Positions 17,091 to 47,900 of a DNA stretch of 64,000 nt are shown one piece after another; the stretch's first letter is position 1, and the number at the start of each line of letters is the position of its first letter. This DNA is from a candidate division WWE3 bacterium. GTDB taxonomy: Bacteria > Patescibacteriota > WWE3 > UBA101185 > UBA10185. The stretch lies in NCBI GenBank assembly GCA_016182565.1, contig JACPGI010000005.1:11005-75004 (forward strand). Direction: 5' to 3'. Made by a program: the position numbers and the translations under genes. The notes under the pieces are model-generated. The model had not been told where the DNA came from and made no database searches. It saw nothing but the letters and a program-made list of their open reading frames with translations.

Positions 17091-17169
17091 TCAGGGTTGT
17101 AAATAAGCTTTTAAACATTTCGCGGAAAATTTCACGTTTAAACAAAATTAAAAAGTCTTTTTGTAGAAA

Positions 17170-17200: not shown

Positions 17201-17230
17201 TTGAAAATTACTGGTGTCAGATGGTCTGGG

Positions 17231-18031: not shown

Positions 18032-18237
18032 CTTTTCTCCTTTTCCCTATCCTTAGCTAGAAATTAGCCAGCAGGAAAGAGTCTATGTTATAGCTTGAAT
18101 TAGTTGGTTGAGAATTGGTGTTGGGGAGAGTTTAGTACAAGTGCATTTTGAAGTCAAATAAACTTTTTGTCATAGAGATATAAGAGGTCGATGTCAAGAA
18201 GATAAGACATCGACCAATTTTAGTTATCACTTACAAA

Positions 18238-20025
18238 TCATGACCCAGTAAAGGCGCTTAAAATACTCAGGGCGAGTGGTAAAAGCGCTCCAGAGGTCAG
18301 TGCGGCTGTTCGCACAAAGTCATATCCACGTTCCAAGCCTCTACCTTGACCCCCATTCAAGAATCCGGCGATAAAGGCAAAGGGCAGCACCAGACTGAGG
18401 GTTACCCATAGGGTCTGATTTACACCTGGGGCCAGGAATAAAGCGAGAAGCAGAATCACAATCACTGCTACCCAACCCAAACCGTAAGTAATCCAATCGG
18501 CATATTTAAGCATCTTTTCAGAGTCGTAATGCTTAAATGTGGCGTGGCGACGTCTCGTTTCCTGAAAGTCGAAGAATAAGATCGGAACCACAGTAACGAG
18601 CGCGGCAATCGGCAAACCGAGAAGCCCAACCAGCGTTTTGCTTGTAGGGCCAAATAGGTAATTTACCACGTATACTGCCATGATGTTGTTACCCCAAGAC
18701 CACTCCGTAGAATGTAGAAACGGATTAGCCAGAATGGCAAGATAACGATCTCTGTCTGGTACAGGCATTTGGGTGAAGGCTTTCAGGTTAAATTTGGCTT
18801 CGGATAACAAATTAACAATAGAGCCAACACCTAAAGTCAACACAAAATTTATAACCATTGGTGCCCAGATCATCAACGGGCTCGTGGCGCTTTTGTTATC
18901 TATTAAGACACGGACAATCAGGGCAATAAAGATAAAAAACCCAGAGAGTCCAGCAACCCAGTGGCGTGTAAACAACTCGCCCAAAGCAACCAGCAAAACA
19001 ACCCCAATCAAAAACATTTCGAGCTTTCCTAGTGGCTGATCTTTAGACATCAGGCCGCCGGCGCCAAGCTTATAGGTCAGGGAGTTCAATTTATCGATTA
19101 AGGGTTTGACATTCTCGTCCACCACACCTGCTACCGGGGCAACAGTTTGCCCTGCTACAACCCAATCAAAATAAGCTTGGGGAGCAAAACAAACATCTCC
19201 GGTTCCCTGATCCCAATAGGCATACACTTGTTGCTCGTTGTAGTCACGTCCCACTACTTTAGTTACCACATACAGGTTGGACTGTTTTAATTCCCCACAA
19301 TCTGCAGATTCCATGTCAATACTTCCAAATCCCTGATTTCCTATGTAACTGGGGGCAGGTTGAAGCTGATATACCACAGGCAAACCATCCGCAGTACGCT
19401 CCACAGGAGGTCTGTTCAATGGGCTGGCAGAATTGCCAGTCAACCCACTACTGACTGGGGAGTCACCGGGTAATAAATTAAGCAATGTTGGGCCAAAATA
19501 CAACCCTGCCAATAGCAGTACAACCGCAAGAAGTGAAAAACCAACAATTTGAGCGGTACGCCACATGCTTGCCTTTTTCTGCCCTGCATCAAATGCACTT
19601 GCTTCAGCGCTTTGTTTCTGCTTTTTCTCTTTACTTGCACTACGATAAGCCGCCATTGCCTCAGCCTGTGCATCACTAATAGAAACGCCAGCAAGCTTTG
19701 CAAGTTCCGGAGGCATATCAGTAAGATCATCTGCTTCAAGGTCTGGAAAAACCTCCTGAAGCTGGGAAACAGCATCAGCAAATTTTGTACCTTTTCCGTT
19801 CCACTCCATAAGAATCTGGAGGGGATCGAAAGCTGGTTTGTCAGCAGTTGCAGGTTTCACGGGCAATTTGCTAAATGCCCCCAACAGATAATGGGTAACA
19901 GCCGCAGTCAAATCCTTAAGACGCGGGTCACCTTTTGCGTTTGCAATCCACCTTTCCTCTATCTGAGCCAACGTTGCTAAAAACAATGTAGCCCGTTGCT
20001 CATCAGTGTATACAGTTGTAGCCAT
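18238..20025 (-). CDS. Hypothetical polytopic membrane protein encoded in a higher-GC island
   Basis: 595-aa ORF with a soluble N-terminal domain of about 150 aa, one TM, an extracytoplasmic segment of about 150 aa, then 8 or more TM helices. GC looks roughly 50 percent. Confidence 0.55.
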   Translation of the reverse strand: MATTVYTDEQRATLFLATLAQIEERWIANAKGDPRLKDLTAAVTHYLLGAFSKLPVKPATADKPAFDPLQILMEWNGKGTKFADAVSQLQEVFPDLEADDLTDMPPELAKLAGVSISDAQAEAMAAYRSASKEKKQKQSAEASAFDAGQKKASMWRTAQIVGFSLLAVVLLLAGLYFGPTLLNLLPGDSPVSSGLTGNSASPLNRPPVERTADGLPVVYQLQPAPSYIGNQGFGSIDMESADCGELKQSNLYVVTKVVGRDYNEQQVYAYWDQGTGDVCFAPQAYFDWVVAGQTVAPVAGVVDENVKPLIDKLNSLTYKLGAGGLMSKDQPLGKLEMFLIGVVLLVALGELFTRHWVAGLSGFFIFIALIVRVLIDNKSATSPLMIWAPMVINFVLTLGVGSIVNLLSEAKFNLKAFTQMPVPDRDRYLAILANPFLHSTEWSWGNNIMAVYVVNYLFGPTSKTLVGLLGLPIAALVTVVPILFFDFQETRRRHATFKHYDSEKMLKYADWITYGLGWVAVIVILLLALFLAPGVNQTLWVTLSLVLPFAFIAGFLNGGQGRGLERGYDFVRTAALTSGALLPLALSILSAFTGS

Positions 20026-32597: not shown

Positions 32598-34025
32598 CTA
32601 ATTGGTAAGGGTTCGCTTGATGTTTACTGCATCCTGCTTGGTCTTGAAGTTATTTTCCATATCATCTTTTACTTTACCCACCCCATGCATTACAGTTGTA
32701 TGATCTCTTCCACCAAGCAACTCACCTATTGTCATGTAAGGTGTGTTTGTTAATTCATACATAAGATACATTGCCATCTGTCTCGGAATCACTAGATCTT
32801 TAGTTCTTTGCTTACCTTTTAAGTCAGTAATTTTTACGGCATAATAACTTGCCACTGTTTTTATGATGTCATTTACGTTTGTTGCCTTTTGTGACTTTTC
32901 TTTTACAATCCCGTGACCTAGTGCATGGGCTGCAAATTCTACCGTTGGACTTTCTCCCATTGCTTTTGCTTGTGTCACCACTTGTAAGTACGCCCCCTCT
33001 AACTCTCTTATGTTTGTATCCACCTTTTCGGCTACAAAATCTAAAGTTTCATTAGGAATGTTATCGTGATTTGTATCCCTTTTTGTTCTTAATATTGCAA
33101 TTCTAGTATCAAGATCGGGCGGTGTTATATCCGCGATGATTCCGCTGCTAAATCTTGAAGTAATGCGATCTTCTAAAGATGTAAAATTTTTTGGTGGTCT
33201 ATCCGAAGTAATAATTATTTGTTTTTGAGACAAGAACAAAGAATTAAATGTGTGAAAGAATTCCTGCTGTGTTGACTCCTTTCCGATTATAAATTGAATA
33301 TCATCAATGATAAGTACGTCCACACTTCTATATTTATTTCTAAACTTATTAGCAGCATATGTGCCTCCCCTATTACCGCTTTGAATCGACTCTATAAGTT
33401 CATTTGTAAATGCTTCACCAGTTGTATACCCTATGTTTAATTCAGGATGACTTCTTATAATCTCGTTTCCAACCGCGTGGATAAGATGTGTTTTTCCAAG
33501 ACCGACTCCAGCATACAGAAAGAATGGGTTGTATTTTGTTCCGGGATTTTCTGCAACAGCCTTAGCTATAGCAAAAGCAAGTCTATTATTTGATCCCATG
33601 ATATAACTTGAAAAGGTATAACTTGCTTTAAGTCCAAATCTTTCTGCCTTTTTAAAATTAGCCGATGATACTTCCGATGTTTGTCTGTTTTGATCTTTAG
33701 AATTAATTGAATCGGTTTGGTACTGGGTGTCGTTTTGAAATAGTGGTCCCATGTTTTGCTCTGTCTCTTTTTCAACATCTTTAATTTTGCCAATTTTAAT
33801 GTGGATCTGATAGTCGCCCTTTCCTATTTTATCTACACTTGATTTGATAAGTGACTGTAAGTTTTCTAATTGTTTTTTGGCAAATGCTGTCTCACAAACC
33901 ACATCTATTGAATTTTCAGTTAGGTTATCGGCTCTTGTGTTTTGTACCCATGTTTTAAACTGGGTTTCGGATAACACCACCTGTAATTCAGAAAGCACAG
34001 CCTTCCAAAGTGTTTTTATGTCCAT
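32598..34025 (-). CDS. dnaA: Chromosomal replication initiator DnaA
   Basis: MDIKTLWKAVLSELQVVLSETQFKTWV N-terminus; AAA+ Walker A NPFFLYAGVGLGKTHLIHAVGN; C-terminal DNA-binding helix-turn-helix. Confidence 0.95.
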   Translation of the reverse strand: MDIKTLWKAVLSELQVVLSETQFKTWVQNTRADNLTENSIDVVCETAFAKKQLENLQSLIKSSVDKIGKGDYQIHIKIGKIKDVEKETEQNMGPLFQNDTQYQTDSINSKDQNRQTSEVSSANFKKAERFGLKASYTFSSYIMGSNNRLAFAIAKAVAENPGTKYNPFFLYAGVGLGKTHLIHAVGNEIIRSHPELNIGYTTGEAFTNELIESIQSGNRGGTYAANKFRNKYRSVDVLIIDDIQFIIGKESTQQEFFHTFNSLFLSQKQIIITSDRPPKNFTSLEDRITSRFSSGIIADITPPDLDTRIAILRTKRDTNHDNIPNETLDFVAEKVDTNIRELEGAYLQVVTQAKAMGESPTVEFAAHALGHGIVKEKSQKATNVNDIIKTVASYYAVKITDLKGKQRTKDLVIPRQMAMYLMYELTNTPYMTIGELLGGRDHTTVMHGVGKVKDDMENNFKTKQDAVNIKRTLTN

Positions 34026-34178
34026 ATTCGTTTTATATTCCGAAATTTTTGATGGGGCAGTAAATATATCCTATTGTGTATAACTTTACTCGAGTTATCC
34101 ACAATTAATCAAGCAATGTTAGTTGGGGTTTATAGCTGATTGCTTTTTCCCCCACTATCGTTTAAAATCAAGCCTGTT
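34026..34178. promoter_or_regulatory. Candidate oriC / dnaA promoter region with a DnaA box
   Basis: Perfect TTATCCACA at 34094-34102 in the AT-rich spacer between divergent dnaA (-) and rpmH (+). Confidence 0.55.
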
Positions 34179-34334
34179 ATGTCAACAAAAAGAACCTGGC
34201 AGCCAAAAAAACTAAAAAGAGTACGAAAACATGGATTTTTAAAAAGAATGGCCTCGGTAGGAGGAAAGCGCGTTATTAAAAGGAGAATGGTCAAGGGTAG
34301 AAAAGTGTTAGCTAGAGAATACAACGGTAAATAG
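34179..34334 (+). CDS. rpmH: 50S ribosomal protein L34. The ORF-track start at 34140 is too early.
   Basis: [44 protein letters not shown] matches the L34 family. Confidence 0.9.
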
Positions 34335-34367
34335 GTTAATAATTAAAAAATCCCCTATAATAACCTC

Positions 34368-34721
34368 ATGCTTAAAAAACCAAATCGGATAAGGACCAGC
34401 TTTGAATTTGGTAGGGTGCGTAAATACGGAAAGCTTTTTAGGTCTTTATTTTTTGATATCTATGTTTTGGATGTTTACCCGAGGCTGGGACCGGTTAATT
34501 CCCGGTTTGGTATAGTAATTTCTAACAAGTTTAGTAAATCGGCAGTGGTGCGAAACCGTGTTAGAAGAGTTTTTAGAGAAGTGCTACGGCTAAACCTTAG
34601 TGCTTTAAAAAGTGGTTTTTGGGTTGTTATTTATCCGAAGTTTGCTAGTTTAAATAAAGGGTATGCAGAAATTAATACAGAGTTTAATCAGGTTTTACCA
34701 AAAATACATCTCCTTAGATAA
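34368..34721 (+). CDS. rnpA: Ribonuclease P protein component
   Basis: Basic 117-aa protein in the conserved position after rpmH; RNase P protein-like motifs ([21 protein letters not shown]). Confidence 0.75.
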
Positions 34722-34878
34722 TTTGGGATTTCACATATGTAGGTATAGTCCTACATGTTCTGAGTATATGTACCAAGCCATAGAAAAGCATGGAGTTGCT
34801 AAAGGCTCTTTAATGGGGGTATATCGTGTGTTAAGATGTAATCCGTTTAGTAAAGGGGGTTTCGACCCTGTAAAATAA
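34663..34878 (+). CDS. yidD: Membrane protein insertion efficiency factor YidD
   Basis: [45 protein letters not shown] is the YidD signature; the start overlaps the rnpA 3' end. Confidence 0.85.
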
Positions 34879-34883
34879 CAACT

Positions 34884-35672
34884 ATGTCCTTAGTCTGGAA
34901 CACATTATTGGTTCATCCAATTTTAAATATCTTAGTGGCGTTGTATGCCTTATTTGGAAATATGGGTGCGGCAATTGTGGTTCTCACTGTTTTGATAAGG
35001 ACAATACTTATCCCTGTGGTTTTGCCTTCTATGAAGACTATGCAGAAGCAAAGAGACCTCCAACCCGAGCTTGAGAAAATCAAAGAAAAGTTTAAATATG
35101 ATAAGCAGAAGATGGCAGAAGAACAAATGAAGCTTTTGCAAAAACACGGCGTCAATCCGGCAACCGGATGTCTTACCCAAATTGTTATGATTCTTGTTCT
35201 TATTGCTTTATATAATGTTATAAATAAATTTACGCATGGTACTAATCTTAACGAAATAAACCAATCAATCTATTTTGCATTTCTAAAGTTTGTTGATGGG
35301 ACTCAGATAAACACCCAATTTCTATACATGAATTTAATAAAGCCGGACCCATATTATGTTTTACCTGTAATTGCTGGTATTGGTCAGTTTATCTCTTCCA
35401 AGATGATGATGCCCTATGTTGCGGAAGGCGAAAAGGCTGCTCTTGTGACTACTGACAGGAAAGATGACTTAGCTTATAATATGCAAGAGCAAATGCTTTA
35501 TATGATGCCTCTGATGACAGTTTTCATTGGCGCAAGTTTACCAGCAGGTATTTCTTTATATCTTTTGGTTACAACGATCTTCTCACTGGTCCAGCAGTAT
35601 TTTGTATCAGGGTGGGGTGGTGTTGCGCCTTGGATTAAAAAGCTATCGACCATTGCCCCAAAATTTAAATAA
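34884..35672 (+). CDS. yidC: Membrane protein insertase YidC/Oxa1, short form
   Basis: 262-aa, 5-TM protein with the YidC core (NMGAAIVVLTVLIRTILIPV...KMMMPYV...) in the conserved rnpA-yidD-yidC order. Confidence 0.85.
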   Translation: MSLVWNTLLVHPILNILVALYALFGNMGAAIVVLTVLIRTILIPVVLPSMKTMQKQRDLQPELEKIKEKFKYDKQKMAEEQMKLLQKHGVNPATGCLTQIVMILVLIALYNVINKFTHGTNLNEINQSIYFAFLKFVDGTQINTQFLYMNLIKPDPYYVLPVIAGIGQFISSKMMMPYVAEGEKAALVTTDRKDDLAYNMQEQMLYMMPLMTVFIGASLPAGISLYLLVTTIFSLVQQYFVSGWGGVAPWIKKLSTIAPKFK

Positions 35673-35707
35673 TTGTGAATAATTAATTTTAAAAAAGGAG
35701 TTATCAA

Positions 35708-36163
35708 ATGGATAGTGTAGTAAAAACTATTGAGCAGAAATTAGGTGAAATTCTAAAGTATCTAAAAGTCAACCCAAAGTATGAGATAGAGGAAGAGGGT
35801 GACACTTGTAAAGTATTTATTGATGGTGATGACTTAAGTTTTTTGATAGGTTACAGAGGCGAATCCTTAAACGGGTTGCAACATATCCTAACTTCTATAA
35901 TCAATAAAGATTTGGCCGAGTGGAAACATATTATTGTTGATATAAATGGCTACCGTGATTCCAGGAAATTAAAAATAGAAGATATGGTAAGAAACTTTAT
36001 TGATCGTGTACGATTCCATAATTCTGATGTAGAGATGCCCCCTATGAATTCTTTTGAACGTAGGTGGGTGCATATGTTTGTAGCAGACTATCCCGATATA
36101 GTTTCTGAAAGTGCTGGAGAGGGTAATACAAGACGAGTTGTATTAAAGTTGAAAGTTAGATAA
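35708..36163 (+). CDS. jag: Jag/KhpB-type RNA-binding protein (KH and R3H domains)
   Basis: Sits after yidC as in many bacteria; C-terminal R3H-like segment RRWVHMFVADYPDIVSESAGEGNTRRVVL. Confidence 0.7.
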   Translation: MDSVVKTIEQKLGEILKYLKVNPKYEIEEEGDTCKVFIDGDDLSFLIGYRGESLNGLQHILTSIINKDLAEWKHIIVDINGYRDSRKLKIEDMVRNFIDRVRFHNSDVEMPPMNSFERRWVHMFVADYPDIVSESAGEGNTRRVVLKLKVR

Positions 36164-36166
36164 CAA

Positions 36167-37285
36167 ATGATTTTTACCTGTCTACAAGAAAATCTGTCCA
36201 AGGGATTATCCACTGTAGGCAAGGCTGTGTCTTTAAAAAGTCCACTCCCTGTATTATCAAATGTATTAGTGGTAGCTCAGGACGGTCGCTTGAAGCTAAC
36301 CGCCTCTAATATGGAAACAAGTATTACTTTATACGTTGGGGCATCAGTGGAAAAAGATGGGGCTATTACTATTCCTGCAAAGCTTTTTGGTGAGTTCATT
36401 TCAAATTTATCCCCCAGTACAATTCGCGGTGAATTAAAGGAAAATATTCTTCATATAAGTACCGAGAAGACCAAATCTAAGTTTAATGGGGTTGATGCCA
36501 GCAATTATCCTGCCCTTCCAGAGATCAAAGATCAAACTTTGGCTATTGAGGTAGACCCAAAGGAATTTGCCCATGCTGTGATGTCAGTTGCTTTTTCAGC
36601 AGCTTCTGATGAAACCAGACCTGTGTTAACCGGAGTTTTAGTCCACCTCGAGGGTGGTGTCTTAACTCTAGCGACAGCAGATGGTTACAGACTATCTGAA
36701 ACATCAATAAAGCTTAAAAAAACTCGTACTTCCGAGTTTAACGTAATTATCCCAGCAAAAACTTTGGTTGAAGTTGCCCGTATCTTTGGTAGTAGTGGGG
36801 ACAAGCTTAAAATTGTGATGAATAAAGACGATAATTTGGCTTTATTTGAAGCTGAGGGTACAACAGTATCCACAAGGATAATTGATGGTAATTTCCCAGA
36901 TTACAAAAAACTAATTCCAGCTGAAGCCATACATAAGGCTGAGTTTTATTCTCAGGACTTACTCGAAGCTGTCAAACTTACAAATGTTTTTGCAAAAGGC
37001 TCAGAGACTCACAGCCCAATAACAATTCATATAAATCCTGAGGGATATATAAAACTTACTTCTGCATCCAGTGAGTCCGGTGAAAATCACACTCAAATTG
37101 ATGCTTCTGTTGAAGGTGAAGTCTTGGATGTGGTTTTTAATTCAAAGTTTTTACTTGATTTTTTGAACAACATAAAAGCCGAGAGGGTAGTTTTTTCTTC
37201 CAACGGTCAGCTTACACCAGGTGTTGTTAAGGGAGCCGAAACAGAGGGGTATATCCACTTGATAATGCCAATAAGAGGGAGTTAA
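36167..37285 (+). CDS. dnaN: DNA polymerase III beta sliding clamp
   Basis: MIFTCLQENLSKGLSTVGKAV... and a three-domain length of 372 aa, in an origin-proximal position. Confidence 0.9.
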   Translation: MIFTCLQENLSKGLSTVGKAVSLKSPLPVLSNVLVVAQDGRLKLTASNMETSITLYVGASVEKDGAITIPAKLFGEFISNLSPSTIRGELKENILHISTEKTKSKFNGVDASNYPALPEIKDQTLAIEVDPKEFAHAVMSVAFSAASDETRPVLTGVLVHLEGGVLTLATADGYRLSETSIKLKKTRTSEFNVIIPAKTLVEVARIFGSSGDKLKIVMNKDDNLALFEAEGTTVSTRIIDGNFPDYKKLIPAEAIHKAEFYSQDLLEAVKLTNVFAKGSETHSPITIHINPEGYIKLTSASSESGENHTQIDASVEGEVLDVVFNSKFLLDFLNNIKAERVVFSSNGQLTPGVVKGAETEGYIHLIMPIRGS

Positions 37286-37330
37286 TGATTTGTTAGCTTT
37301 AGGATAATCAAATACAATTAAATTATAAGT

Positions 37331-37801
37331 ATGTATTTTGCTCCACTGATCCCAGTTTTAATTACATTTATTATGTTTGAGCTGATACTAAAGCTTTTGA
37401 TAAAGGATAAGTTTTTTCCACGAGATGAGTTATTGGTAGGTAGATATATAACCGACTTTTACTACTTACTATTATTTAATGTAGTTGTTGTATTGATGTT
37501 TATTTTACTTGGCTATCAGTGGCTTCCAGAATATATCTTTTCAGAAATTTACCATGCAGTATTTATAATTTTTAGTTATATTTTAATTACTGTTAGCCTA
37601 TTAAACCTAAAACATGGTGTAGTCCCAAGCTTTACTAAGGAGTTTGCTAGAAAGTTGGCTTTTAATCAGGGACACAGTTTAAGTAAGCAGAACCTTATAA
37701 GTGGCATAGAAATTAAATATGTTGGGGCTAAAGCGAAGGCGCTAAATCTCACAGCCATCATTTTTGGTGTGGTGGCAATTTTTCTAACCCTTAAACTTTA
37801 G
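37331..37801 (+). CDS. Hypothetical membrane protein
   Basis: 156-aa ORF with 4 TM helices. Confidence 0.35.
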   Translation: MYFAPLIPVLITFIMFELILKLLIKDKFFPRDELLVGRYITDFYYLLLFNVVVVLMFILLGYQWLPEYIFSEIYHAVFIIFSYILITVSLLNLKHGVVPSFTKEFARKLAFNQGHSLSKQNLISGIEIKYVGAKAKALNLTAIIFGVVAIFLTLKL

Positions 37802-37880
37802 TAAAATTAACTAGAAGCGTACCGAAGCTTAACACAAGGTTTATATTTATATTAAAATGTCAAAATACCCTTCGATTTAT

Positions 37881-40469
37881 CTATTGGTTTTTCTGGTCTT
37901 GATTGTTTGCTAAGGGTATTGTTCCTTGATCGATTTTAGTAGGTATTCCCTGGGATAAATCTTGTTTGATACCTCCCGGCATCAAAATCTTAGGACCACT
38001 ATTGTTGGTGTTTGCATTCTGTCTTTGCTGTCCTGGTATTACTGAGCTGTTAGGTCCAGTATTTAAGTTTTGTTGCCTTGGGGTTTGATAGCCATCCACC
38101 AGTTGATTAGGTGCAATTCCTTGACCAAACGGGGTTTTTGCCACGACGGTATTTTGTGGTTTTTTAACTTCAGCATTTGTTGGTATATGTGGTACTGGAA
38201 TTTTTGGCACGTGTTGTTGAGGTGTAGGTTGTCTAGATTGTTGTTGCTCAATGCTATTTTGTTGCGGTTGATTAGATTGGTTTAACTGATTTTGTTTAGG
38301 CTGACCTACCATAGTAGTATTTATTGGAGTTCTTTGTTGAGGGTGATTCTGTGGTGAAGAGAAAGCTTTACCTTGTGAATTAGAAACTTGAGCATTAGGT
38401 GCCGTGGCTACAGGTATTTGTGGTTGGTTTTGTGCCTGTGTTTGTAATGGTGGTTGTGGTGTCACCGGTTTTGGTGTTGGCATGGGAGTATTAAACTTTG
38501 GTGCCTCATACCTTGGTGCTACTCTTTGCGGAGTTTCTTCTTCAGATATGTCATCATTTGGGTTTTTTGGTTCAGGGATTTTAGCATAACTTTGAGTGTC
38601 AACTATCTCGAATGGTTTATAAGAAGCCCGTTGTTCTTCCACAAGTTTTCTTTGGTTTCTTTCTTCTTTCATTTTTAGTATTTCCTCTGGATTTGTTGTA
38701 ATTAGCTTGTATTCCTCTTCTGAAGCAATTACTTTAATGGCAACGTGATTTGCACCAGCAAAAAACAAACCCTCACCCCTGTCAGCAGATAATAGCAATC
38801 TTTTTTCGCCTTCGGATAGATAGAAAACTTCTGCAATTTTATCTATAGCTGATGGGTGTTGTTTCAAAAGTATTTGAATAGAGGAGTTACTCACAATCGC
38901 GTGGCCATAATCAGACTTTAAAAAGTCGTCCACGTCTTGAGTAATTGTAGTAAGACCCAAATAATATTTTCTGGCTCTTTTTGCGATACCAAACAAAAAC
39001 TGGGCGCTGTCGTTGTTGGACATGAGGTACCAAGCCTCTTCCACAATTAATATTCGTTTACGCAAATCCTTTCTAATAGTTGTCCATACAAAGTCCAAGA
39101 TCATATAGAAGGCAATTGGTCTTAGAGCGTCTTCCAAATGTTTTGTAGAGAAAACAGTCATATCCGCCGTAAGGTTTATATTAGATTGTGAGTCAAATAT
39201 TCCAGTCATAGAACCACGGATAAATTTCTCTAACCTTTCTGCCATACCCCGTGCTTCTACTTCAGCACCACCAAGCAGTACTTTATATAAATCTTCCATA
39301 ACTGGAGGTTCTTGTGAACTTTGGGTATCAGGGTCGGGAGTAATACCTTTTAATCTATAAGTTTCAATCAAGGCTCTATCAAGAATGGCATCTTCTGTAG
39401 GGGAAAGTGTTCCCATCATAAGCCTTAAAAGTGTGTGCAAAGATAAAAGTTTTTGACCAAGTTCATTTTGACCTTCAACAGCAATGCCAGATAAGTCAAA
39501 AGGATTAATCTTTGCCGGAGAGCTTGGTGAGAAGTTTATGTAGTTACCACCCAAAGCTTCACAGACCGGTTTATACTCTTCTTCTGGGTCGATGATAAGA
39601 ACTTGTGTTCCAAAGATGATAGAACGCAAGGCTTCAAGTTTAACAACAAAAGATTTACCAGCTCCGGATTTAGCAAAAACTACGGTGTTAGCGTTTTCCA
39701 AAGAAAACCTATCAAAAATGATAAGAGAACCGTTGTGTTTATTAACTCCGTACATTATGCCTTCATCTGAAGTAAGGTCTGATGAGGTAAAAGGGAAAGT
39801 TGTTGCAAGACTTGTGGTATCCATGTTTCTTGTAATCAAAAGTTTATCCATTGCTGTGGGAACTGTGGATTGAAATGCTTGTTCCATTTGTAAAGTGGCT
39901 TTTTTGGAAATAAGAAGTAGGGATCCAAGTGTGCCTTCCAGTTTTTTAGATATGTTTTCAAGCTCTTCTAAAGTTTCAGCAGGTATAGTGATGTAAAAAG
40001 AAAATTGGAAAAACTTCTCGATACCCTTTACAAGCTGCTCTTGTAAAGTGTTTGCGTCTTCTAAAGCAGCAACTACTACTGGATCTGCAATTTTTCCCCT
40101 TTCAGCATCCCCCCTGACAGTAGCCTCAAGTTCTGTAATTTTTCTTTTTAAATCGTCAAGTACCCCTTGAGCTTTTACAGGATAATAAAACATTGAGATA
40201 TCAAGTGAGTGATCGAAGTTAATAATAGGTGCAAGCCAGTCAGCCCCTACAAACCTAGGATATCCTGACACAAAAAGTGTTCGAAAAAACATTCCCCCAA
40301 CCCGCATGTGATTAAAATCAACTTCAATTGCAGAAGGGGCAATAATGTCTCTTATATCAACCATTCCTCTTGCAATCACATCTCCGGCATTTTCCTTTGG
40401 TGCTTCTGGTGTAAGCTTTGGGTCTACTTTTGGTTTTTTATTAAATAATGTAAATTTTGGCATTGGCAT
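37881..40469 (-). CDS. virB4: Type IV secretion ATPase, VirB4/TraC/TrbE family, with a C-terminal Gln/Pro/Asn-rich low-complexity tail of about 280 aa
   Basis: Walker A VVFAKSGAGKSFVVK and Walker B/DEAW-like ILIVEEAWYLM; overall length and order match VirB4. The tail (approximately nt 37881-38720) reads ...PQPPLQTQAQNQPQIP...QSNQPQQNSIEQQQSRQP.... Confidence 0.8.
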   Translation of the reverse strand: MPMPKFTLFNKKPKVDPKLTPEAPKENAGDVIARGMVDIRDIIAPSAIEVDFNHMRVGGMFFRTLFVSGYPRFVGADWLAPIINFDHSLDISMFYYPVKAQGVLDDLKRKITELEATVRGDAERGKIADPVVVAALEDANTLQEQLVKGIEKFFQFSFYITIPAETLEELENISKKLEGTLGSLLLISKKATLQMEQAFQSTVPTAMDKLLITRNMDTTSLATTFPFTSSDLTSDEGIMYGVNKHNGSLIIFDRFSLENANTVVFAKSGAGKSFVVKLEALRSIIFGTQVLIIDPEEEYKPVCEALGGNYINFSPSSPAKINPFDLSGIAVEGQNELGQKLLSLHTLLRLMMGTLSPTEDAILDRALIETYRLKGITPDPDTQSSQEPPVMEDLYKVLLGGAEVEARGMAERLEKFIRGSMTGIFDSQSNINLTADMTVFSTKHLEDALRPIAFYMILDFVWTTIRKDLRKRILIVEEAWYLMSNNDSAQFLFGIAKRARKYYLGLTTITQDVDDFLKSDYGHAIVSNSSIQILLKQHPSAIDKIAEVFYLSEGEKRLLLSADRGEGLFFAGANHVAIKVIASEEEYKLITTNPEEILKMKEERNQRKLVEEQRASYKPFEIVDTQSYAKIPEPKNPNDDISEEETPQRVAPRYEAPKFNTPMPTPKPVTPQPPLQTQAQNQPQIPVATAPNAQVSNSQGKAFSSPQNHPQQRTPINTTMVGQPKQNQLNQSNQPQQNSIEQQQSRQPTPQQHVPKIPVPHIPTNAEVKKPQNTVVAKTPFGQGIAPNQLVDGYQTPRQQNLNTGPNSSVIPGQQRQNANTNNSGPKILMPGGIKQDLSQGIPTKIDQGTIPLANNQDQKNQ

Positions 40470-41272: not shown

Positions 41273-43066
41273 TTAATTTCCTACAAATTCCATTGCAGGT
41301 ATTATCTCACCTTTTGCATCAAAATTAATTATATCAAAGGAAAACCCAGTTGAGTTGTTTGCATCCACCTCTATATTGTAACTTCCGTTCGGAAGTGGGT
41401 TTGTGATAGTAAATTCTCCTAGAGGATTAGTTTTTACAGCTCTTACAGGTTCATTTTTTCCATTTTTTATAATAAGGAGGACATTTGCAAGCCCCATACC
41501 TCTGATATTTCTAACAATGCCTGCTATTGTATTTGGAATTTGTGGCTGCAAGTTGTCGGGAATTATTCCAAGCTTTGAAGAATTTATTTCTGGTTCTTCC
41601 GCAATAAAGCCTCCCTTTTTAACATTTATTGCTGCTACCTGTTCTCTTAATTTTGTGATTGTGCTTTGAGTTTGTGTTATTTTTTCTTCCAATTCCCTAA
41701 ATGCAATAGAGTTTTTCTCTTTCGTTTGTGGGTCGGTTTCTGTTGAAGAGATTTGTATGTGGGTTTTCAAGGCACCCATTTTTGTAAGTAATCCCTCTTT
41801 TTCTTTTTCAAAACGCTGGATCAATTCTTCAGCCTCGTTTCTTACTTGAATATCTTCTACTGAATACTCAGTGTAGCTAGATTTTTCCTTAGGAGGTAAA
41901 TTAATTTTTTCGGATTGTTTTAATTGTTGGATGTAAGTTTTTAATTGTTCGGCTTTTTTTACTACATCACTTGCTGACTCCATTTCGTCACTTGTTTTTA
42001 GTGTACGTTCCCCCCTTATTGGAAGCACTATACTACCCTGAAATGGTGTTAGGTTTGTTAGTTTTCTTCCGGCATGCATATCAGGAGTTATTGGACGAAG
42101 CAGAATCTCGTTATTATCACCAGGCGCAGTAAATACCTTTCTACTTATAAACTTTTTAGCAGCTGGTCTAAGTGTTTGTTTAAATGAGCTACTTGCACGT
42201 TGCATGATAGACGGCCTTGCAATATGAGCTGAAGTTTGTTTTGTAATTATTGGTGTCTCTGACGTACTGGGTAAGTTAGTAGATACAGCTGGGCCATATG
42301 TTTCTACAGTTGGAGTTTGAGTTTTTTCGATTAGTTGTTGTTTTTCTAAAATTTCTTGATTGTTTTCTATTTCATTAGAACTTATAGCTATATTTTCTTC
42401 ACCTTCTATTAGCTGTGCCTCTTGTGGTAATGTTTCAATCTGTACTCCAGTAATTATGTTTTTGGTTGAAGAGGTTTCAGGTACCATCTCTTGTGGTGAG
42501 CTTTCCATAAATTCATCATCAAGTGCCACCGCAGTTGTTACATTTTTTGAATAATCGCCAAATGCGTCCTTAACCTTTTGAATGTACTCTGCTTCAAGTT
42601 TTTCGTATGGGTCTAAAATTTCTTTCTTTTGATATTGATACTCAAGATAGTTTTCAAGTTTTCTTCTACTTGCAGTCGGTGCCAAAGTTATAAGTTCTTG
42701 TCTAACCATAGAAAGGCTTTGATATAAAAACGCTGAAGGAGGTAATGGGTTTTTTCTCCAGATGTATTGTTGCTCTGCGTAAACCGCTCGAAAAAAGTTT
42801 ACTATCCACTCATCAAGACCCCTTTCCTCGTAAGGTAAAAAGGCAAATGCCACCCCAACAAGAACAATGAGGGATATTATTGGCCACTTAAAGAAAGGAG
42901 GAAGAGTAAACGTATAGATAACGTAGGCCACTCCTAGAAATACAGCCAAGTATGTAAATTGGCGCATGGTAAGATCCCCAATTAGTTTAAATTCCACATC
43001 CATTATATTTTGTGGAACTGCGTGCTGCTTATTTGATTGTGGCATTTCACGAATGGGCATGTGCAA
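41273..43066 (-). CDS. T4SS-associated membrane protein: VirB3-like N-terminal TM hairpin, coiled-coil region, and C-terminal beta-sandwich-like domain
   Basis: Two adjacent TM helices near the N-terminus (FTYLAVFLGVAYVIYTF / WPIISLIVLVGVAFAFL), placed just before the VirB4 gene as virB3 usually is. A long coiled-coil region follows. The C-terminal segment (GIVRNIRGMGLANVLLIIKNG...SYNIEVDANNSTGFSF) reads as a carboxypeptidase-regulatory / Cna-B-like fold. Confidence 0.45.
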   Translation of the reverse strand: MHMPIREMPQSNKQHAVPQNIMDVEFKLIGDLTMRQFTYLAVFLGVAYVIYTFTLPPFFKWPIISLIVLVGVAFAFLPYEERGLDEWIVNFFRAVYAEQQYIWRKNPLPPSAFLYQSLSMVRQELITLAPTASRRKLENYLEYQYQKKEILDPYEKLEAEYIQKVKDAFGDYSKNVTTAVALDDEFMESSPQEMVPETSSTKNIITGVQIETLPQEAQLIEGEENIAISSNEIENNQEILEKQQLIEKTQTPTVETYGPAVSTNLPSTSETPIITKQTSAHIARPSIMQRASSSFKQTLRPAAKKFISRKVFTAPGDNNEILLRPITPDMHAGRKLTNLTPFQGSIVLPIRGERTLKTSDEMESASDVVKKAEQLKTYIQQLKQSEKINLPPKEKSSYTEYSVEDIQVRNEAEELIQRFEKEKEGLLTKMGALKTHIQISSTETDPQTKEKNSIAFRELEEKITQTQSTITKLREQVAAINVKKGGFIAEEPEINSSKLGIIPDNLQPQIPNTIAGIVRNIRGMGLANVLLIIKNGKNEPVRAVKTNPLGEFTITNPLPNGSYNIEVDANNSTGFSFDIINFDAKGEIIPAMEFVGN

Positions 43067-43110: not shown

Positions 43111-44601
43111 CTATCTCCTCTTTGTCTTTTGCTCACCGAGGAATGCTTCTTCTATGATCTTTGGCATCTTAAGAGCTTGGAAGAAAATAGCAAAACCCAT
43201 TATAATTCCAAATAGAAAACTACCCAGGGCATCAAAAAAGACAAATATATTACTCTGTGCATTTACTTGCATTGTAAATATCTCTATCACATTTTCCACA
43301 ACTATTTTATATAGGATATAGTTTCCTACTTCTAGGGTTAAGGCCATAGCCGGAAGCGCAAGCATATTTGCCAAGAAATACTTAAACCAGTCGGATATTT
43401 TTTCTTCGTTCCCAGGAATTGACCCCCATGCAAATGTAAGAGGTGCAGAAACCGAGGCCATTATAAGTTTTATGTAGATAAAGATATATTTAACGGAGGC
43501 AACTAGCCATAAACCCATGTTTAAAAATGCCATAAAAATGGTGAGAATTATAAACATAAGCCCAACCCCAGCAGATAGTATTGAGCCTGAGGTTAGTACT
43601 GCAATTGTGAGTGGCCCTATGGTACCTGCTCCCCCTAACGCTTTAATTGGCTGTATTAAAGCCATCTGAATTGGGGTGATAAGCCCTATCCCAATAAGAC
43701 CAATTGTCATGCTGAATGTTATAAGTATTATGGAGATGACTATTCTTGGTACTGCGTATTGTGCTGTGACTACAACTTGAGAGCTTATTTGTCTTCGCAT
43801 CATAATCATAGATCCTACATAAATCATAAATATTGCTAAAAGTCCGTAGGAGATATTTCTAATCAATTTCCACACGTCCATTATAGCTGTTGAAACTGAT
43901 GTTGGTACTAGGCCTCCAGGAAAGTTTACTTGGGCAAGTGCAGTGTCTTTTAAAATTAGGGTATTGCTTGCCACATATCTACCGTAATTAGCAAGATTTA
44001 CAGAGGGCAAAACCCCTTTATCTGAGAAGGCTGTTTCATTTGCAATATATGTTAGGCCTGCAAGGGATCCTCCTATGAACGCTCGACTTGGTAACTTGTT
44101 TGCCTCCCCACCATCAAGCTTTACAAGCATAGGTGCACAGATACCTCCTCCTGCCGGTGGATATAAACTTTTAATATCAGGAGGTAATTGGTCCTGAACT
44201 GAAGTTCCAGATATTTCTTCTACAAGATATGCCATACAAGCTTGATGTTGGTTTAAGCTGTGTCCCCAGACTAGAAATGTTGCAACTTCGGTCGCTTGGG
44301 CAATAAATGTATCTCCCACTGTTCTTACAATAGTTTGGAGTGGGGAGCCATTAAGTTTCCATTGAAAATGTGAACATTTACCTAGTTCAAAGGAAAACAT
44401 AGTTGTATCAACTCCTATACCTCCACCACAGGGAGAAGTGACTGTTTCGTCATCTGCATAGGAGACTTGAGCATAGGCTGTAGTTTTAGATAGTGTAAAA
44501 ACCAATGGAAGGGAAAAAACTAAACCCAAAAAGAAAGTTAGAATTGGTTTGTTGGAATTTGTTTTCATATACACTAGGAATTTTTCCACATTAAGACACA
44601 T
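43111..44601 (-). CDS. VirB6/TrbL-like polytopic membrane protein
   Basis: Signal peptide, then an N-terminal extracytoplasmic domain of about 200 aa, then 6 or more TM helices; first gene of the virB4-containing operon. Confidence 0.5.
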   Translation of the reverse strand: MCLNVEKFLVYMKTNSNKPILTFFLGLVFSLPLVFTLSKTTAYAQVSYADDETVTSPCGGGIGVDTTMFSFELGKCSHFQWKLNGSPLQTIVRTVGDTFIAQATEVATFLVWGHSLNQHQACMAYLVEEISGTSVQDQLPPDIKSLYPPAGGGICAPMLVKLDGGEANKLPSRAFIGGSLAGLTYIANETAFSDKGVLPSVNLANYGRYVASNTLILKDTALAQVNFPGGLVPTSVSTAIMDVWKLIRNISYGLLAIFMIYVGSMIMMRRQISSQVVVTAQYAVPRIVISIILITFSMTIGLIGIGLITPIQMALIQPIKALGGAGTIGPLTIAVLTSGSILSAGVGLMFIILTIFMAFLNMGLWLVASVKYIFIYIKLIMASVSAPLTFAWGSIPGNEEKISDWFKYFLANMLALPAMALTLEVGNYILYKIVVENVIEIFTMQVNAQSNIFVFFDALGSFLFGIIMGFAIFFQALKMPKIIEEAFLGEQKTKRR

Positions 44602-44675: not shown

Positions 44676-47600
44676 TTGTATTCATACTATGAAAATATTT
44701 CCAGTACATATAGAATAGCTGTTGTTATGGCAGATACATTTTTTTATCCCGGAAACCACCCTGTAAGAAGAAGACCGGCAGGTGGTTCAAGGCCATTTGT
44801 TCCAGAATACACCCCGACAGTAGGGCAAAATTTTTATGATACCTTAGATGAGACTGCACTTGGTGTCCCCCGCTGGATGTGGATGCAGGAGATGAAAGAT
44901 ATCCAATCCTCTTGGGAAGCAAGTTATAAATCCCCAGAAGTAAGTGTGACAACAAAGGAGCTAAATGCTGAGGGGGCTGAGGAAATAGCTGAGTTACCGG
45001 GTGGAATTGGTATAAAGGTGAGTGTTAATCCTATGGACTGGATTAATGATCCAACGAAGCAGATAGAAAATCTTACTATCGGTGCAGCCCGAAATGTGTT
45101 TAACATGTCAGATCTTACTTCAAGAAGCCGAAAAGAATTTTGGAGTAAGCTTACAGAGCGTAACTATTCCCCATTTTATCTAGGTGACGGAAACCAGGAT
45201 GAACTATCTGAAGACCCAGTTTCAAGAAATTTAATAAGGCATCCAAAACCCGGCAACTTCTATAAAGGTCTGGATTCAAGTATGGGTGAATTTGCTGTAA
45301 GTGTTGATTCTACTGGATCAAGAAACAAAGCCATGCGTGGTGTAAGCACTTCTGTGATAGGTAGTTTAAAAAAAGAAATAGATGACAAGCTTTTTGATAC
45401 ATCAATCCCAAACACAAGAACTCCCAAACTAGCAAACAATCTAGATGCATCAGTTTTTGCTACGGCCGAAAAGTTTGCAAAGAAAGCTGATTTAGTAGAC
45501 AAAGTTAATCTTGTTATATCAGGGGATAAGAAGAAAGGTATTACAGGACTGGGGGACATAAAATCGGAAATTGATCAAGCATTTTTGGGGGGTAGTATAA
45601 ACTCTGCAGCAACTGCAAAAAAACTTACAGATTTTGCACAACGAATAGAGCACGCGCAAGAGGCTTTAGAGCAGGTAAAGGGTATATCTAAAAAAGAAGC
45701 CCATGCGGTAGCCAGATTAGAAAACCATTTAAACCAACTTTCTGATGCAATTAAGCCATACGCTTATAGGGATAGTTCCGGCAATATGGTTGTTAAAGTA
45801 CCATCCGGCATCGCAGCATCCCAATCACTTCGAGCAAAGCTGACAATCGCTAACTCCAAACTTGTTAGTGGTAATTTTGGGGATGGTAGCTATGGGAGCT
45901 ACGTAAATCACGTTCTAAGACAAGAAATTACTGATACCAAATCCGATCTCAATAAGAAGGTCATTAATGCTACTCAATCAGGAAGCACTAACTATATATT
46001 GAGTAATCCGAGCCGAAGGTTAGCAAGACTCTCCTCCCACATTAACTCAACTTATGAATGGGAAGCCGCAAGAGATTTAGTGGAAGACCTACAGGAAGGT
46101 AAGCTCCCGGTTAAATTTATATATAAACAAATGATCCAGCCTAGGATTGAGGTTTTTACCCCAAGTTATTGGATCGGAAGAACCTTAGACAGATCCCATT
46201 ATTTTGGTTTAACGATAAATGATGATGTTGCAACAGGGGCGGTAAATGGGGGAGTTTTGGGCTCAGTTGGAAACTTTATGATTAAAAAGTCCCCCATGAA
46301 AGGCCTATATGATGTAAATATAAATCTAGGTGTAATTGATCCACACAATGCCTGGAAAAAGGTTATATACATCAAAGGTGACTACGGTCTTAAAAAGATT
46401 ATTGATGCTAAGGCTATGTTTGGTCTTGACGACAAGAGTATAAAGTCGGCCACTTCGCACCTTGTGGACGGATTAAGTGGTAACTTAAAAACTTCAGCAG
46501 GCGGTGTGGTCTCAAAAAGTGATTTTTTAAAAATCTTAAACGGTGACCGCGTTTTAGCTGCAAGTTTGAGACTGGATGCAGAAAATTGTAAAGCTATAGC
46601 TAACTTTAGAAGAAACTTTCTTTCCAAATACTTTCGTACACTTGATCTTGATAAGTTGGGTCTTACCTTAGACAAACACGGGCGTTTGATTGGCTCTGCG
46701 GCTGCTTTGGATGCTGCTAGTGATCGACTCCACGCATTTTTCTTGAGCATTCATAGTAACGAAAATAATCCCGCAGACTTTTTTAGTATTGGTGCTGGCA
46801 AGGCGGGAATATTAGATAAGTACGCAAAATGGTTAAGTAGAGTTCAATCGAACACAGTAGTTAAGTATCTCTCAGTTATTATAAACCCAGTTGTTAAGGG
46901 CAAGGAGATAATCTTAGAGCAAGTCAATGCCAAAATAGCAAGTATTATTGCTGCGGTATTTGGTGATGCTACAGGTGGTCTTGGATATGCTATCGCTTGG
47001 GCTATAAAAATAGCTGTGCAATGGGTTCTCTCAAAGCTTGAAAAAATATTCAAAAAGTTTTGGCAAGCTGTTGGTCACTTTGACGTAAAAGCGATTGGTG
47101 GGATGATGGACGATGCTGTAGACGAAATTGGTAAATGGGTTGTTTACATTCTACTTTTTTCATTTCTACCATTTATCATGGTTTCTGGATTTATGAGTAA
47201 GATGGTGTCAACTCTTCCTGTGTATGACCCTTCTCAAATAGGTGAAATAAAATCAGGGGGAGGAAGTCTAGGGTTAGGTTATGGCGACGGCAGCGAAGCA
47301 AATTGTGATATTACTACAAAATCACTATCTTCTTACGACTTTATGCAAAATGTATCAGGTGGTGGTAATACTGGGCAAGCAACCGCCCTCATGGAGGAAA
47401 TGCTGATGGGCTTTTGGTGTTATTGGAATCAATCCCCAAGTTTTCCGGAACTGTTTAATTTACAATTATTTGCAATAAACCCATTCCCAGGGGACCTTTC
47501 TAGCTGTTGGGATTGCCTGTTCTGGTGCACATTTCTGCCTTGGAAAGCCGGTCTTGATAATAGTGGTCAGTCTACAGCTTGCAAGATGGAATCTCATTAC

Positions 47601-47900
47601 AAAAGTGGAAGTGGCCATTATGTCCCTATAGAACAAGCTTATGTAAATGGGCATGACTCGAATGTAAGACCTGGCGATATCATATTTATTGCTTCATCTG
47701 GGAGAAGAAAGCATCCCAATTGTCCAGCCGATGTTGATAGTAACCACGTCGGTGTAGTTTATGCAGTAACTCCGGATGCTGTTATTACACTTCACTCAAA
47801 TTCAGGAGAAAAAGCTTGGGCATACGGCGTTGATGACGATGGTCACATTATGGATAATGAATACCACGCAATTCAAGGATTTGGTGGTCCCGGCAATTAA
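44676..47900 (+). CDS. Large T4SS-associated membrane protein with a putative C-terminal CHAP / NlpC-P60-like cell-wall hydrolase domain (PrgK/TcpG-like role)
   Basis: 1074 aa. Mid-protein TM helices (IIAAVFGDATGGLGYAIAWAI; VVYILLFSFLPFIMVSGFM). A Cys-rich segment (SCWDCLFWCTF) is followed by ...GDIIFIASSG...NHVGVVYAV...HSNSGE, resembling the CHAP Cys/His arrangement. Transcribed divergently from the virB6-virB4 operon. Confidence 0.45.
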   Translation: MYSYYENISSTYRIAVVMADTFFYPGNHPVRRRPAGGSRPFVPEYTPTVGQNFYDTLDETALGVPRWMWMQEMKDIQSSWEASYKSPEVSVTTKELNAEGAEEIAELPGGIGIKVSVNPMDWINDPTKQIENLTIGAARNVFNMSDLTSRSRKEFWSKLTERNYSPFYLGDGNQDELSEDPVSRNLIRHPKPGNFYKGLDSSMGEFAVSVDSTGSRNKAMRGVSTSVIGSLKKEIDDKLFDTSIPNTRTPKLANNLDASVFATAEKFAKKADLVDKVNLVISGDKKKGITGLGDIKSEIDQAFLGGSINSAATAKKLTDFAQRIEHAQEALEQVKGISKKEAHAVARLENHLNQLSDAIKPYAYRDSSGNMVVKVPSGIAASQSLRAKLTIANSKLVSGNFGDGSYGSYVNHVLRQEITDTKSDLNKKVINATQSGSTNYILSNPSRRLARLSSHINSTYEWEAARDLVEDLQEGKLPVKFIYKQMIQPRIEVFTPSYWIGRTLDRSHYFGLTINDDVATGAVNGGVLGSVGNFMIKKSPMKGLYDVNINLGVIDPHNAWKKVIYIKGDYGLKKIIDAKAMFGLDDKSIKSATSHLVDGLSGNLKTSAGGVVSKSDFLKILNGDRVLAASLRLDAENCKAIANFRRNFLSKYFRTLDLDKLGLTLDKHGRLIGSAAALDAASDRLHAFFLSIHSNENNPADFFSIGAGKAGILDKYAKWLSRVQSNTVVKYLSVIINPVVKGKEIILEQVNAKIASIIAAVFGDATGGLGYAIAWAIKIAVQWVLSKLEKIFKKFWQAVGHFDVKAIGGMMDDAVDEIGKWVVYILLFSFLPFIMVSGFMSKMVSTLPVYDPSQIGEIKSGGGSLGLGYGDGSEANCDITTKSLSSYDFMQNVSGGGNTGQATALMEEMLMGFWCYWNQSPSFPELFNLQLFAINPFPGDLSSCWDCLFWCTFLPWKAGLDNSGQSTACKMESHYKSGSGHYVPIEQAYVNGHDSNVRPGDIIFIASSGRRKHPNCPADVDSNHVGVVYAVTPDAVITLHSNSGEKAWAYGVDDDGHIMDNEYHAIQGFGGPGN

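Follow-up and report, generated by a model that had tools for sequence, protein, structure and literature searches.

How do bacteria of the Patescibacteria cut through a cell wall at the place where their type IV secretion system (T4SS) crosses it, and whose wall do they cut? Much of bacterial diversity belongs to this group, and its cultured members live attached to other bacteria. The question is raised by a large gene, here called BIG, in a 64,000-nucleotide stretch of the genome of an ultra-small candidate division WWE3 bacterium (contig JACPGI010000005.1; the whole stretch is referred to as the window, and all coordinates are those of the window). BIG lies among T4SS genes and encodes a protein that ends in a module resembling CHAP and NlpC/P60 enzymes. 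The reading favored, to which we assign a probability of roughly 0.6, is that the BIG protein is a membrane-anchored, T4SS-linked wall peptidase, a counterpart of VirB1, provided with a cognate regulator or inhibitor by the gene downstream.

This reading is carried in the first place by the C-terminal module, for which residue numbers, here and throughout, follow the 1074-amino acid (aa) reading from the TTG at 44676:

44727..47900, + strand: gene of the family protein (BIG), 1057 aa; 1074 aa from TTG 44676
47331..47897, + strand: CHAP/NlpC-P60-like module, residues 886-1074, with the Pfam CHAP match at residues 943-1042 (47502-47801)
47526..47528, + strand: codon of Cys951, predicted nucleophile (FWCT motif), invariant in 81 homologues
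47745..47747, + strand: codon of His1024, predicted catalytic residue (NHVGVV), invariant
47799..47801, + strand: codon of Asn1042, predicted third residue of the triad (HSN), invariant

CHAP (PF05257) is the top Pfam match of the query, which scores 18.7 bits at full length, 22.4 bits as the C-terminal 224 aa and 23.1 bits as 189 aa; the isolated domain reaches E-values of 1.7e-4 and 1.1e-4, covering positions 10-81 of the 81 in the hidden Markov model (HMM). An exhaustive HMMER search over 1.84 billion representatives retrieved 213 representative clusters at E ≤ 1e-3, and among the matches listed (the best 150 of the 213 clusters), 81 have the C-terminal domain. Across the alignment of these 81 sequences, G912, N918, W950, C951, G1000, H1024, and N1042 are invariant, and a 30-sequence alignment (A1) adds F913, F949, S1041, and K1046. 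Scanned singly, 28 of 30 homologous domains match Pfam CHAP at E ≤ 0.01 (best E, 5.3e-9), and 8 of the 30 also match NlpC/P60 (NLPC_P60). A word-indexed search with the module alignment returned only eight sequences, mostly fragments, five of which carry a precomputed PF05257 assignment. One member of the family is named 'CHAP domain-containing protein' by NCBI.

The AlphaFold2 (AF2) model of the module, built on A1, has a mean predicted local distance difference test score (pLDDT) of 92 and a predicted TM-score (pTM) of 0.88, and presents a papain-like α+β fold, in which a helix begins two residues after C951, strands occupy positions 139-146 and 150-154 of the domain, and the His and Asn stand at or just after successive strands. 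Among PDB structures, Foldseek finds credible matches in the E. coli Gsp amidase, CD630_03720 of C. difficile, the lysin Ly7917, the amidase effector Tae2 of a type VI secretion system (T6SS), and NlpC1 (probability 0.95-0.98; TM-score about 0.4), and nearly all top matches in BFVD are CHAP, Peptidase C51, or NlpC/P60 lysins (probability 0.93-1.0; TM-score up to 0.49). The fold is that of CHAP lysins (SAOUHSC_02979, 5t1q; Ly7917, 5d74; Gsp amidase, 3a2y) and NlpC/P60 enzymes (4hpe, 7cfl), and the active site is laid out in the same way, with the Cys of C-T-x-aromatic/Leu directly preceding a helix, the His within a strand of the pattern H-V-x-x-V, and the third, polar residue on the strand that follows. 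In the alignment with the S. aureus CHAP amidase 5t1q, CTwL corresponds to CTWYV, HVaiV to HVAFV, and SN to ESN. Unlike the known CHAP/NlpC-P60 enzymes, with which it shares about 12-18% identity at TM-scores of 0.35-0.5, the module has an extra N-terminal sub-domain with the conserved motif GFWCxWN (G912, F913, and N918 invariant), together with several conserved cysteines that presumably form disulfides. From the alignments and the model, we conclude that the module, though divergent, truly belongs to the CHAP/NlpC-P60 fold and has a predicted Cys951-His1024-Asn1042 triad; its place in the superfamily is supported by fold and active site and is borderline by the curated HMM score.

Pfam, NCBIfam, and PDB searches all gave a weak match to ribosomal protein uS9 around 'GGGNTGQA' (47316-47393, residues 881-906), which was rejected as a chance motif in the linker that precedes the module; when the C-terminus was compared as a single sequence with those of the PDB, nothing else came up. 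The viral contigs searched hold no relative of the module, and PHROGs gave nothing relevant for either half of the protein.

The open reading frame (ORF) at 44676..47900 (+) is present in the window and yields 1074 aa from TTG, as stated in the preliminary description of this DNA. Judged from the sequence, the real start is almost certainly the ATG at 44727 (1057 aa), because the family N-terminus 'MA..PFYPGYYPG.P..R.P.GG' aligns from the Met at that position and because the NCBI model of the identical protein, hypothetical protein HYV31_02850 [candidate division WWE3 bacterium], begins there. A promoter-like ATGAAA-16-TAGAAT at 44689-44716 is a consensus match only, and such matches are no commoner in the region than expected by chance. 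The Cys-rich C-terminus of about 200 aa noted in the same description is real, with seven cysteines in the last 200 residues (877, 915, 944, 947, 951, 969, and 1016) and one in the first 870; of the motifs quoted there, SNHVGVVYAV holds H1024 and LHSNSGE holds N1042, and FWCTF with C951, which had not been singled out, completes the set. A CHAP-type domain, as then proposed, is therefore supported by the 28 matching relatives, by the residues invariant in 81 sequences, and by the model with its Foldseek neighbors: both CHAP similarity and a conserved Cys/His pair, placed before a helix and on a strand, respectively, were found. As to profile scores, the relatives match CHAP and NlpC/P60, whereas the query itself stays below the CHAP gathering cutoff (22.4-23.1 versus 26 bits).

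The second line of evidence is the genomic setting. The window is chromosomal and origin-proximal: dnaA, yidC, jag, and dnaN are followed by T4SS genes on the minus strand, and murT and gatD lie upstream of dnaA. Within 32598-40469, the T4SS cluster directly adjoins dnaA-yidC-jag-dnaN, and the same order is seen in a related locus (L001; related loci are denoted by L and listed homologous proteins by P). The genes around BIG are as follows:

37881..40469, - strand: VirB4-like ATPase of the CD1110 family (monoderm conjugation type), 367 bits
40520..41224, - strand: TrsD/TraD-family protein (NCBIfam), resembling the VirB4 N-terminus
41273..43066, - strand: PrgI (VirB3-like) protein, unusually long (597 aa), with a CarboxypepD_reg-like (Ig-like) domain near the C-terminus
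43111..44601, - strand: 496-aa polytopic membrane protein in VirB6 position, with a signal/transmembrane segment, a Cys-containing external region, and about six transmembrane segments
48726..49558, - strand: two VirB2-like T4SS pilin genes (129 and 148 aa)
50391..52250, + strand: SpoIID-domain protein, 619 aa, with an N-terminal coiled coil; a small gene lies between the pilin genes and this gene

BIG and the polytopic gene diverge from a 125-bp intergenic gap. For the latter, the label 'VirB6-like' was dropped, as no profile backs it and the likeness is one of position and topology only; six orthologues scanned against Pfam at E ≤ 10, and a profile compared with PDB sequences, gave no match. 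For the retrieval of related loci, the full-length alignment proved too divergent; the conserved N-terminal block of BIG yielded 6 + 6 loci from WWE3, 'Saccharibacteria', and other Patescibacteria. These 12 include two pairs of near-duplicates, and the short contig of L008 does not reach the upstream gene. BIG stands head-to-head with the same polytopic gene in 11 of the 11 loci that show the upstream gene (about nine of them independent), pilin arrays follow BIG wherever the contig of a related locus continues, and several WWE3-like loci (L002, L009, L010, and L011) have the SpoIID gene in synteny with the T4SS/pilin block. A further protein with the CHAP module sits in a PrgI-TraC-VirB4 cluster (L013).

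The T4SS association suggested earlier thus holds, with VirB4, TrsD, PrgI, and two pilins flanking the gene and the arrangement kept in related loci, and the accompanying remark about a Gram-positive-like wall fits the literature on Patescibacteria as monoderms (PMC12102498, PMC12857230). The cluster corresponds to the known T4SSs of this group, which have been described as MPF-FATA-like (MPF, mating-pair formation), located near dnaA, accompanied by pilins, and usually lacking a relaxase or a linked VirB1 (PMC12102498; PMC12857230). In most classes, classical VirB1 hydrolases are seldom linked to virB4 according to a recent survey (PMC12102498).

The part of the BIG protein that precedes the module has these features:

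44739..44789, + strand: best-conserved motif of the N-terminus (FFYPGNHPVRRRPAGGS; consensus PFYPGYYPG.P..R.P.GG), without a signal peptide and with predicted disorder (pLDDT below 50)
44790..46943, + strand: almost all-α N-region, with a coiled coil at about 285-405, conserved blocks at about 21-160 and 440-520, and one Cys
46944..47024, + strand: glycine-zipper-like helix (IIAAVFGDATGGLGYAIAWAIKIAVQW), residues 757-783, weakly hydrophobic and conserved; membrane span uncertain
47136..47207, + strand: strong predicted transmembrane helix W821-V844

Residues from about 50 to 830 are nearly all helical, ending in three very long helices that contain 757-783 and 821-844. The Pro/Tyr/Gly-rich N-terminal peptide, about the first 40 residues and predicted to be disordered, is the best-conserved stretch of this family of about 1000 aa, and its PFYPGYYPG motif might serve in docking or recognition. 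No relative of the N-region was found in Pfam, NCBIfam, PHROGs, or the PDB, or by fold; the full-length AF2 model (pLDDT 65) gave no credible fold match, the N-region profile matched generic coiled coils only, and in word-indexed protein searches, neither the full protein nor the full-length family alignment retrieved anything but the query. An exact-match look-up of the BIG protein gave no record.

Cysteine content bears on the topology. In 80 proteins, the mean Cys content per 100 aa is 2.9 for the C-modules (median, 6 Cys) and 0.04 for the N-regions (median, 0). In the genome of the window, the figures are 0.19 for cytoplasmic proteins and about 1.0-1.5 for the SpoIID protein, the external part of the polytopic protein, and a pilin. 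The Cys-free N-region was set aside as a clue, being weakened by a genome that is Cys-poor overall, and only the enrichment in the C-module was used. Because of this enrichment and of the single strong transmembrane helix, the sequence favors an N-in/C-out topology.

The third line of evidence comes from the family. In the Patescibacteria, its members consist of an all-α N-region of about 800 aa, a transmembrane segment, and an interchangeable C-terminal module: on homologous N-regions, the C-terminal slot holds a CHAP-like, a LytM/M23-like, or an HExxH module, another tail, or none. The LytM/M23-like module (HGSN...YGYA.D...HxHxE) has a profile that matches SpoIIQ (5.5e-5), an M23 peptidase (3e-3), and ShyA. 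The HExxH module is assigned by motif only, from the zinc-protease signature HExxH...EDFAE, and its profile found nothing in the PDB. The closest full-length relative among the matches listed, P0003 (E 1e-73), carries the HExxH module. Members without a module (L001:9971-12004, P0005, P0006, and P0037) end a few dozen residues past the transmembrane helix. On a neighbor-joining tree of the N-terminal block from 49 full-length representatives (26 M23, 8 HExxH, 7 CHAP, and 8 other), the module must change at least 15 times, compared with 21.2 ± 1.3 times for shuffled labels, a rough figure given that the tree is shallowly supported. The CHAP-like module also occurs in many shorter proteins (600-900 aa), which have unrelated and likewise Cys-free N-regions with hydrophobic segments, and a few of its carriers are ordinary signal-peptide proteins. 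The stand-alone form is seen in L015:184-3841 and in L018, where a signal-peptide CHAP-like protein of 283-336 aa, downstream of genes for a Cys-rich 613-aa secreted protein and a 186-aa transmembrane protein, is followed by a partner of the kind described below; no T4SS genes are visible on these two short contigs. No paper was found on the family, on the exchange of its modules, or on the pairing of CHAP module and partner.

The type of module is coupled to the gene that comes next, which in the window is the following:

47922..48665, + strand: partner gene, 247 aa, 21 nucleotides past the BIG stop codon; transmembrane helix 16-37, Big_5-like Ig domain 42-125, and a C-terminal domain of about 80 aa

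The C-terminal domain of the partner follows the pattern PWY..LPI...Y.I.Y...FRI, with invariant P, PI, Y.I.Y, FR, and L, and its profile found nothing in the PDB. In six of seven loci with a CHAP module, the next gene encodes a transmembrane-anchored protein that shares this domain (pairwise E 1e-8 to 1e-12; match to the partner profile, 6e-35), and in L013-L015 its start overlaps the stop of the CHAP gene by 4 nucleotides. By module, the downstream genes are as follows:

CHAP-like, window and L006 (same family): transmembrane-anchored protein with the ~80-aa domain
CHAP-like, L013 (another family, inside the PrgI-TraC-VirB4 cluster): same ~80-aa domain
CHAP-like, L014: same ~80-aa domain
CHAP-like, L015-L017 and L018 (signal-peptide CHAP proteins): same ~80-aa domain
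CHAP-like, L019 (154-1031): no partner; a convergent VirB2-like pilin gene directly after
M23-like, L007 and L010/L011: transmembrane segment plus Big_5 only; homologous to each other (3e-29), not homologous to the CHAP partners
HExxH, L002/L009: a third type of downstream gene
No module, L001: no partner gene; a pilin gene directly after

The sample of loci behind this pairing is small (7 CHAP, 3 M23, and 2 HExxH, with some near-duplicates). Within it, L010/L011 are closer to the window than L006 is in VirB4 (E-283), SpoIID (E-211), and the polytopic gene, and yet differ in module and partner, both of which the more distant L006 has in common with the window; the two genes therefore behave as a cassette.

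Taken together, a mechanism may be proposed for the favored wall-peptidase reading. The BIG protein would be a component of the chromosomal monoderm-type T4SS of the WWE3 cell. Its Cys-poor N-region of about 800 aa, which has no signal peptide, would stay on the cytoplasmic or membrane side and probably dock to the T4SS, and after the transmembrane helix 821-844, the Cys-rich C-terminal ~190 aa would be displayed outside the membrane. From its conserved residues and its model, the module is predicted to be a catalytically competent cysteine peptidase or amidase, with C951 as nucleophile assisted by H1024 and N1042, and we infer that it would cut peptide stems or cross-links of peptidoglycan, in the cell's own wall or in that of a host, where the machine and its pilus cross. 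The 247-aa transmembrane-anchored protein would be its cognate extracytoplasmic binder and would most likely inhibit or regulate the module, reducing the harm done to the producer's own wall.

Such a role has precedents in Gram-positive conjugation. There, VirB1 homologues are membrane-anchored proteins with extracellular CHAP, LytM, SLT, or muramidase domains (PMC12857230). Like PrgK of pCF10, TraG of pIP501, and Orf14 of Tn916, BIG is encoded inside a monoderm-type (MPF-FATA-like) T4SS cluster and is predicted to be membrane-anchored with the hydrolase domain C-terminal to the anchor. The kinds of domains overlap as well, in that PrgK combines LytM, muramidase, and CHAP, TraG combines SLT and CHAP, and the BIG family has CHAP and, in relatives, LytM/M23 (PMC12857230). 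The differences are substantial. The anchor of BIG follows an all-α N-region of about 800 aa, whereas the VirB1-type proteins PrgK, TraG, and Orf14 have a short or ~200-aa cytoplasmic part; and the BIG family, unlike these three, carries only one hydrolase module, which close relatives exchange or lack, and has a downstream partner specific to the module. Outside the CHAP core, no sequence homology to the three was detectable, and NCBIfam returned no conjugation-hydrolase model. Membership in the VirB1 class is thus functional and analogical only, and the 'PrgK/TcpG-like' role of breaching the cell's own wall, put forward in the preliminary description, would hold by analogy.

A closer parallel in lineage is found in Southlakia epibionticum, in which SEML1_0006 and SEML1_0007, adjacent to the T4SS and next to virB4, are essential for epibiotic growth (PMC10633639; PMC12102498). 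SEML1_0006 has two lysozyme folds plus a domain of Cys-proteinase fold (PMC10633639). SEML1_0007 (1113 aa) has only a C-terminal peptidase-fold module of about 155 aa (residues 951-1105), so that its overall plan is that of the BIG family. Like BIG, both belong to a dnaA-proximal T4SS cluster of Patescibacteria. The SEML1_0007 module differs from CHAP, being of the Hedgehog/DD-peptidase, M15/DD-peptidase-like kind, and its gene lies downstream of virB4, whereas BIG stands head-to-head with the gene in VirB6 position.

Several observations weigh against the wall-peptidase reading. The query's own CHAP score is below the gathering cutoff of 26 bits; the module profile matches NlpC/P60 and CHAP enzymes among PDB sequences weakly (E 0.05-0.4); and the structural matches are modest (TM-score 0.4-0.5; E about 1e-3 to 1e-2). 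PrgK is reported to have a CHAP domain that regulates and is not itself the active hydrolase (PMC12857230). Docking to the T4SS is a guess, since the ~800-aa N-region has no recognizable relative, and the conserved helix 757-783 could span the membrane too, which would place both termini on the same side. The existence of members without a module implies that wall cutting is not the core function of the family and that a conserved core protein carries the hydrolase as an accessory, and in L019, the CHAP module stands without a partner. Finally, unlike TraG, PrgK, CwlT, and TcpG, the BIG protein has no glycosidase domain: a scan of all 1074 aa with Pfam and NCBIfam at E ≤ 10 revealed neither SLT nor muramidase nor glucosaminidase. 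Given the missing glycosidase, glycan cleavage may be supplied by the SpoIID-domain protein encoded nearby, whose family is one of lytic transglycosylases.

The C-terminal end can be exchanged and mostly has a matching gene next to it, which opens up the main rival reading, namely that BIG and its neighbor are a polymorphic effector/immunity pair. In this reading, the N-region would be a T4SS carrier; the hydrolase would be a payload directed at the wall of the host bacterium on which the cell lives, or of a competitor, and might be set free or displayed where the cells touch; and the downstream protein would shield the producer's own peptidoglycan as an immunity protein. We regard this as possible, though doubtful. 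It accounts for the cassette behavior better than a VirB1-like role does: the slot holds at least three unrelated peptidase types as well as none, with the frequent module changes described above among 49 proteins; the nearest listed full-length relative, P0003, has HExxH instead; the closely syntenic L010/L011 have an M23-like module and another downstream gene, while the distant L006 shares CHAP module and partner; and the CHAP module and the gene with the ~80-aa domain travel together in three carrier architectures, with the 4-nucleotide overlap in L013-L015. What is expected of polymorphic toxins, a conserved N-terminal carrier with a variable module and a co-varying downstream gene, is indeed seen, with L019 as the exception. 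In addition, the structural matches include Tae2, and the T4SSs of the candidate phyla radiation (CPR), which lack a relaxase and a coupling protein, have been proposed to export proteins (PMC10633639, PMC12102498). The arrangement resembles the Tae/Tai and Tse1/Tsi1 pairs of T6SSs and the X-Tfe/X-Tfi pairs of Xanthomonas and Stenotrophomonas in having a wall-hydrolase module and a small downstream gene that tracks the module type. Unlike in those pairs, the enzyme is fused behind a transmembrane helix to a large conserved protein with no evident release, and the system is a monoderm T4SS. The strong transmembrane helix would hold the enzyme on the producer's own membrane, and neither a cleavage site nor a secretion signal was identified. 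Moreover, the M23 partners consist of a transmembrane segment and Big_5 only, as found also in the CHAP-linked partners at T4SS loci, so that a module-specific domain is evident for CHAP alone; the small locus sample and the unpartnered L019 count on the same side, and Gram-positive VirB1 proteins are equally diverse in their modules without being toxins.

The wall-peptidase and effector/immunity readings are not mutually exclusive. A speculative scheme, to which we give low confidence, is a T4SS-coupled polymorphic wall-lytic system of Patescibacteria, in which a conserved carrier of about 800 aa with the invariant PFYPGYYPG motif would link interchangeable CHAP, M23, or zincin payloads to the secretion or pilus apparatus, so that the epibiont could open the host wall at the contact site; each payload would form a cassette with its own membrane-anchored immunity protein. 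If this were true, payload type would reflect the chemistry of the host wall and help to set the host range.

It is unlikely that the CHAP-like module is not a peptidoglycan hydrolase at all and acts as a protease or amidase on another substrate (pilins, secreted proteins, or a non-wall amide), or as a non-catalytic binding or regulatory domain. The CHAP fold includes non-wall amidases, the E. coli Gsp amidase being among the best PDB matches; both the CHAP and the LytM domains of PrgK are reported to be regulatory (PMC12857230); and the domain is divergent, with its extra GFWCxWN sub-motif. Against this stand the Cys, His, and Asn that never vary among 81 sequences of 25-40% identity, an argument for catalysis, the overwhelming majority of cell-wall lysins among the structural neighbors, the wall-peptidase type (M23/LytM) of alternative modules in the same slot, and the SpoIID and MurT/GatD wall genes in the neighborhood.

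Phage tape-measure or ejection proteins such as Pb2 of T5 have a long helical part, hydrophobic helices, and a C-terminal muralytic domain. That BIG is a protein of this kind, injected through the T4SS or pilus and inserting into the host envelope, is highly improbable: its ~800 all-α residues with a coiled coil, followed by hydrophobic helices and a muralytic module, its nearly Cys-free N-region, its strongly conserved disordered N-terminal motif, which could be a recognition signal, and weak fold matches that include α-pore-forming toxins at meaningless probabilities would suit the idea, but PHROGs, viral contigs, and the full-length fold search all failed to reveal similarity to phage proteins, the Cys depletion is partly a genome-wide trait, and the idea rests purely on analogy.

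Elsewhere in the window, positions 12589-15951 (+) encode a 1120-aa fusion of an NAD-dependent epimerase/dehydratase domain (18-256) with DUF4012 (705-843). The stretch 16000-20000 is richer in GC (0.43-0.455 versus about 0.36) and holds a 595-aa ORF at 18238-20025 (-) without a Pfam match. At 55018-56233, smpB is followed by the transfer-messenger RNA gene (tag peptide ADENAYIAQPALVGALA).

In the one genetically tractable species of Patescibacteria, the chromosomal T4SS is essential for the epibiotic lifestyle (PMC10633639). For the wall-cutting function of CPR T4SSs, the locus provides a concrete candidate with a predicted active site that can be mutated. The family to which it belongs is widespread (213 representative clusters), and its genes keep a fixed place beside the T4SS membrane core. 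The enzymatic end is exchanged between relatives, and the gene downstream is a candidate for an inhibitor or immunity partner. The locus may also offer a genomic marker of host-wall specificity. Nothing is overturned by these findings; how CPR cells breach walls, and whose wall they breach, is made into a specific and testable question.

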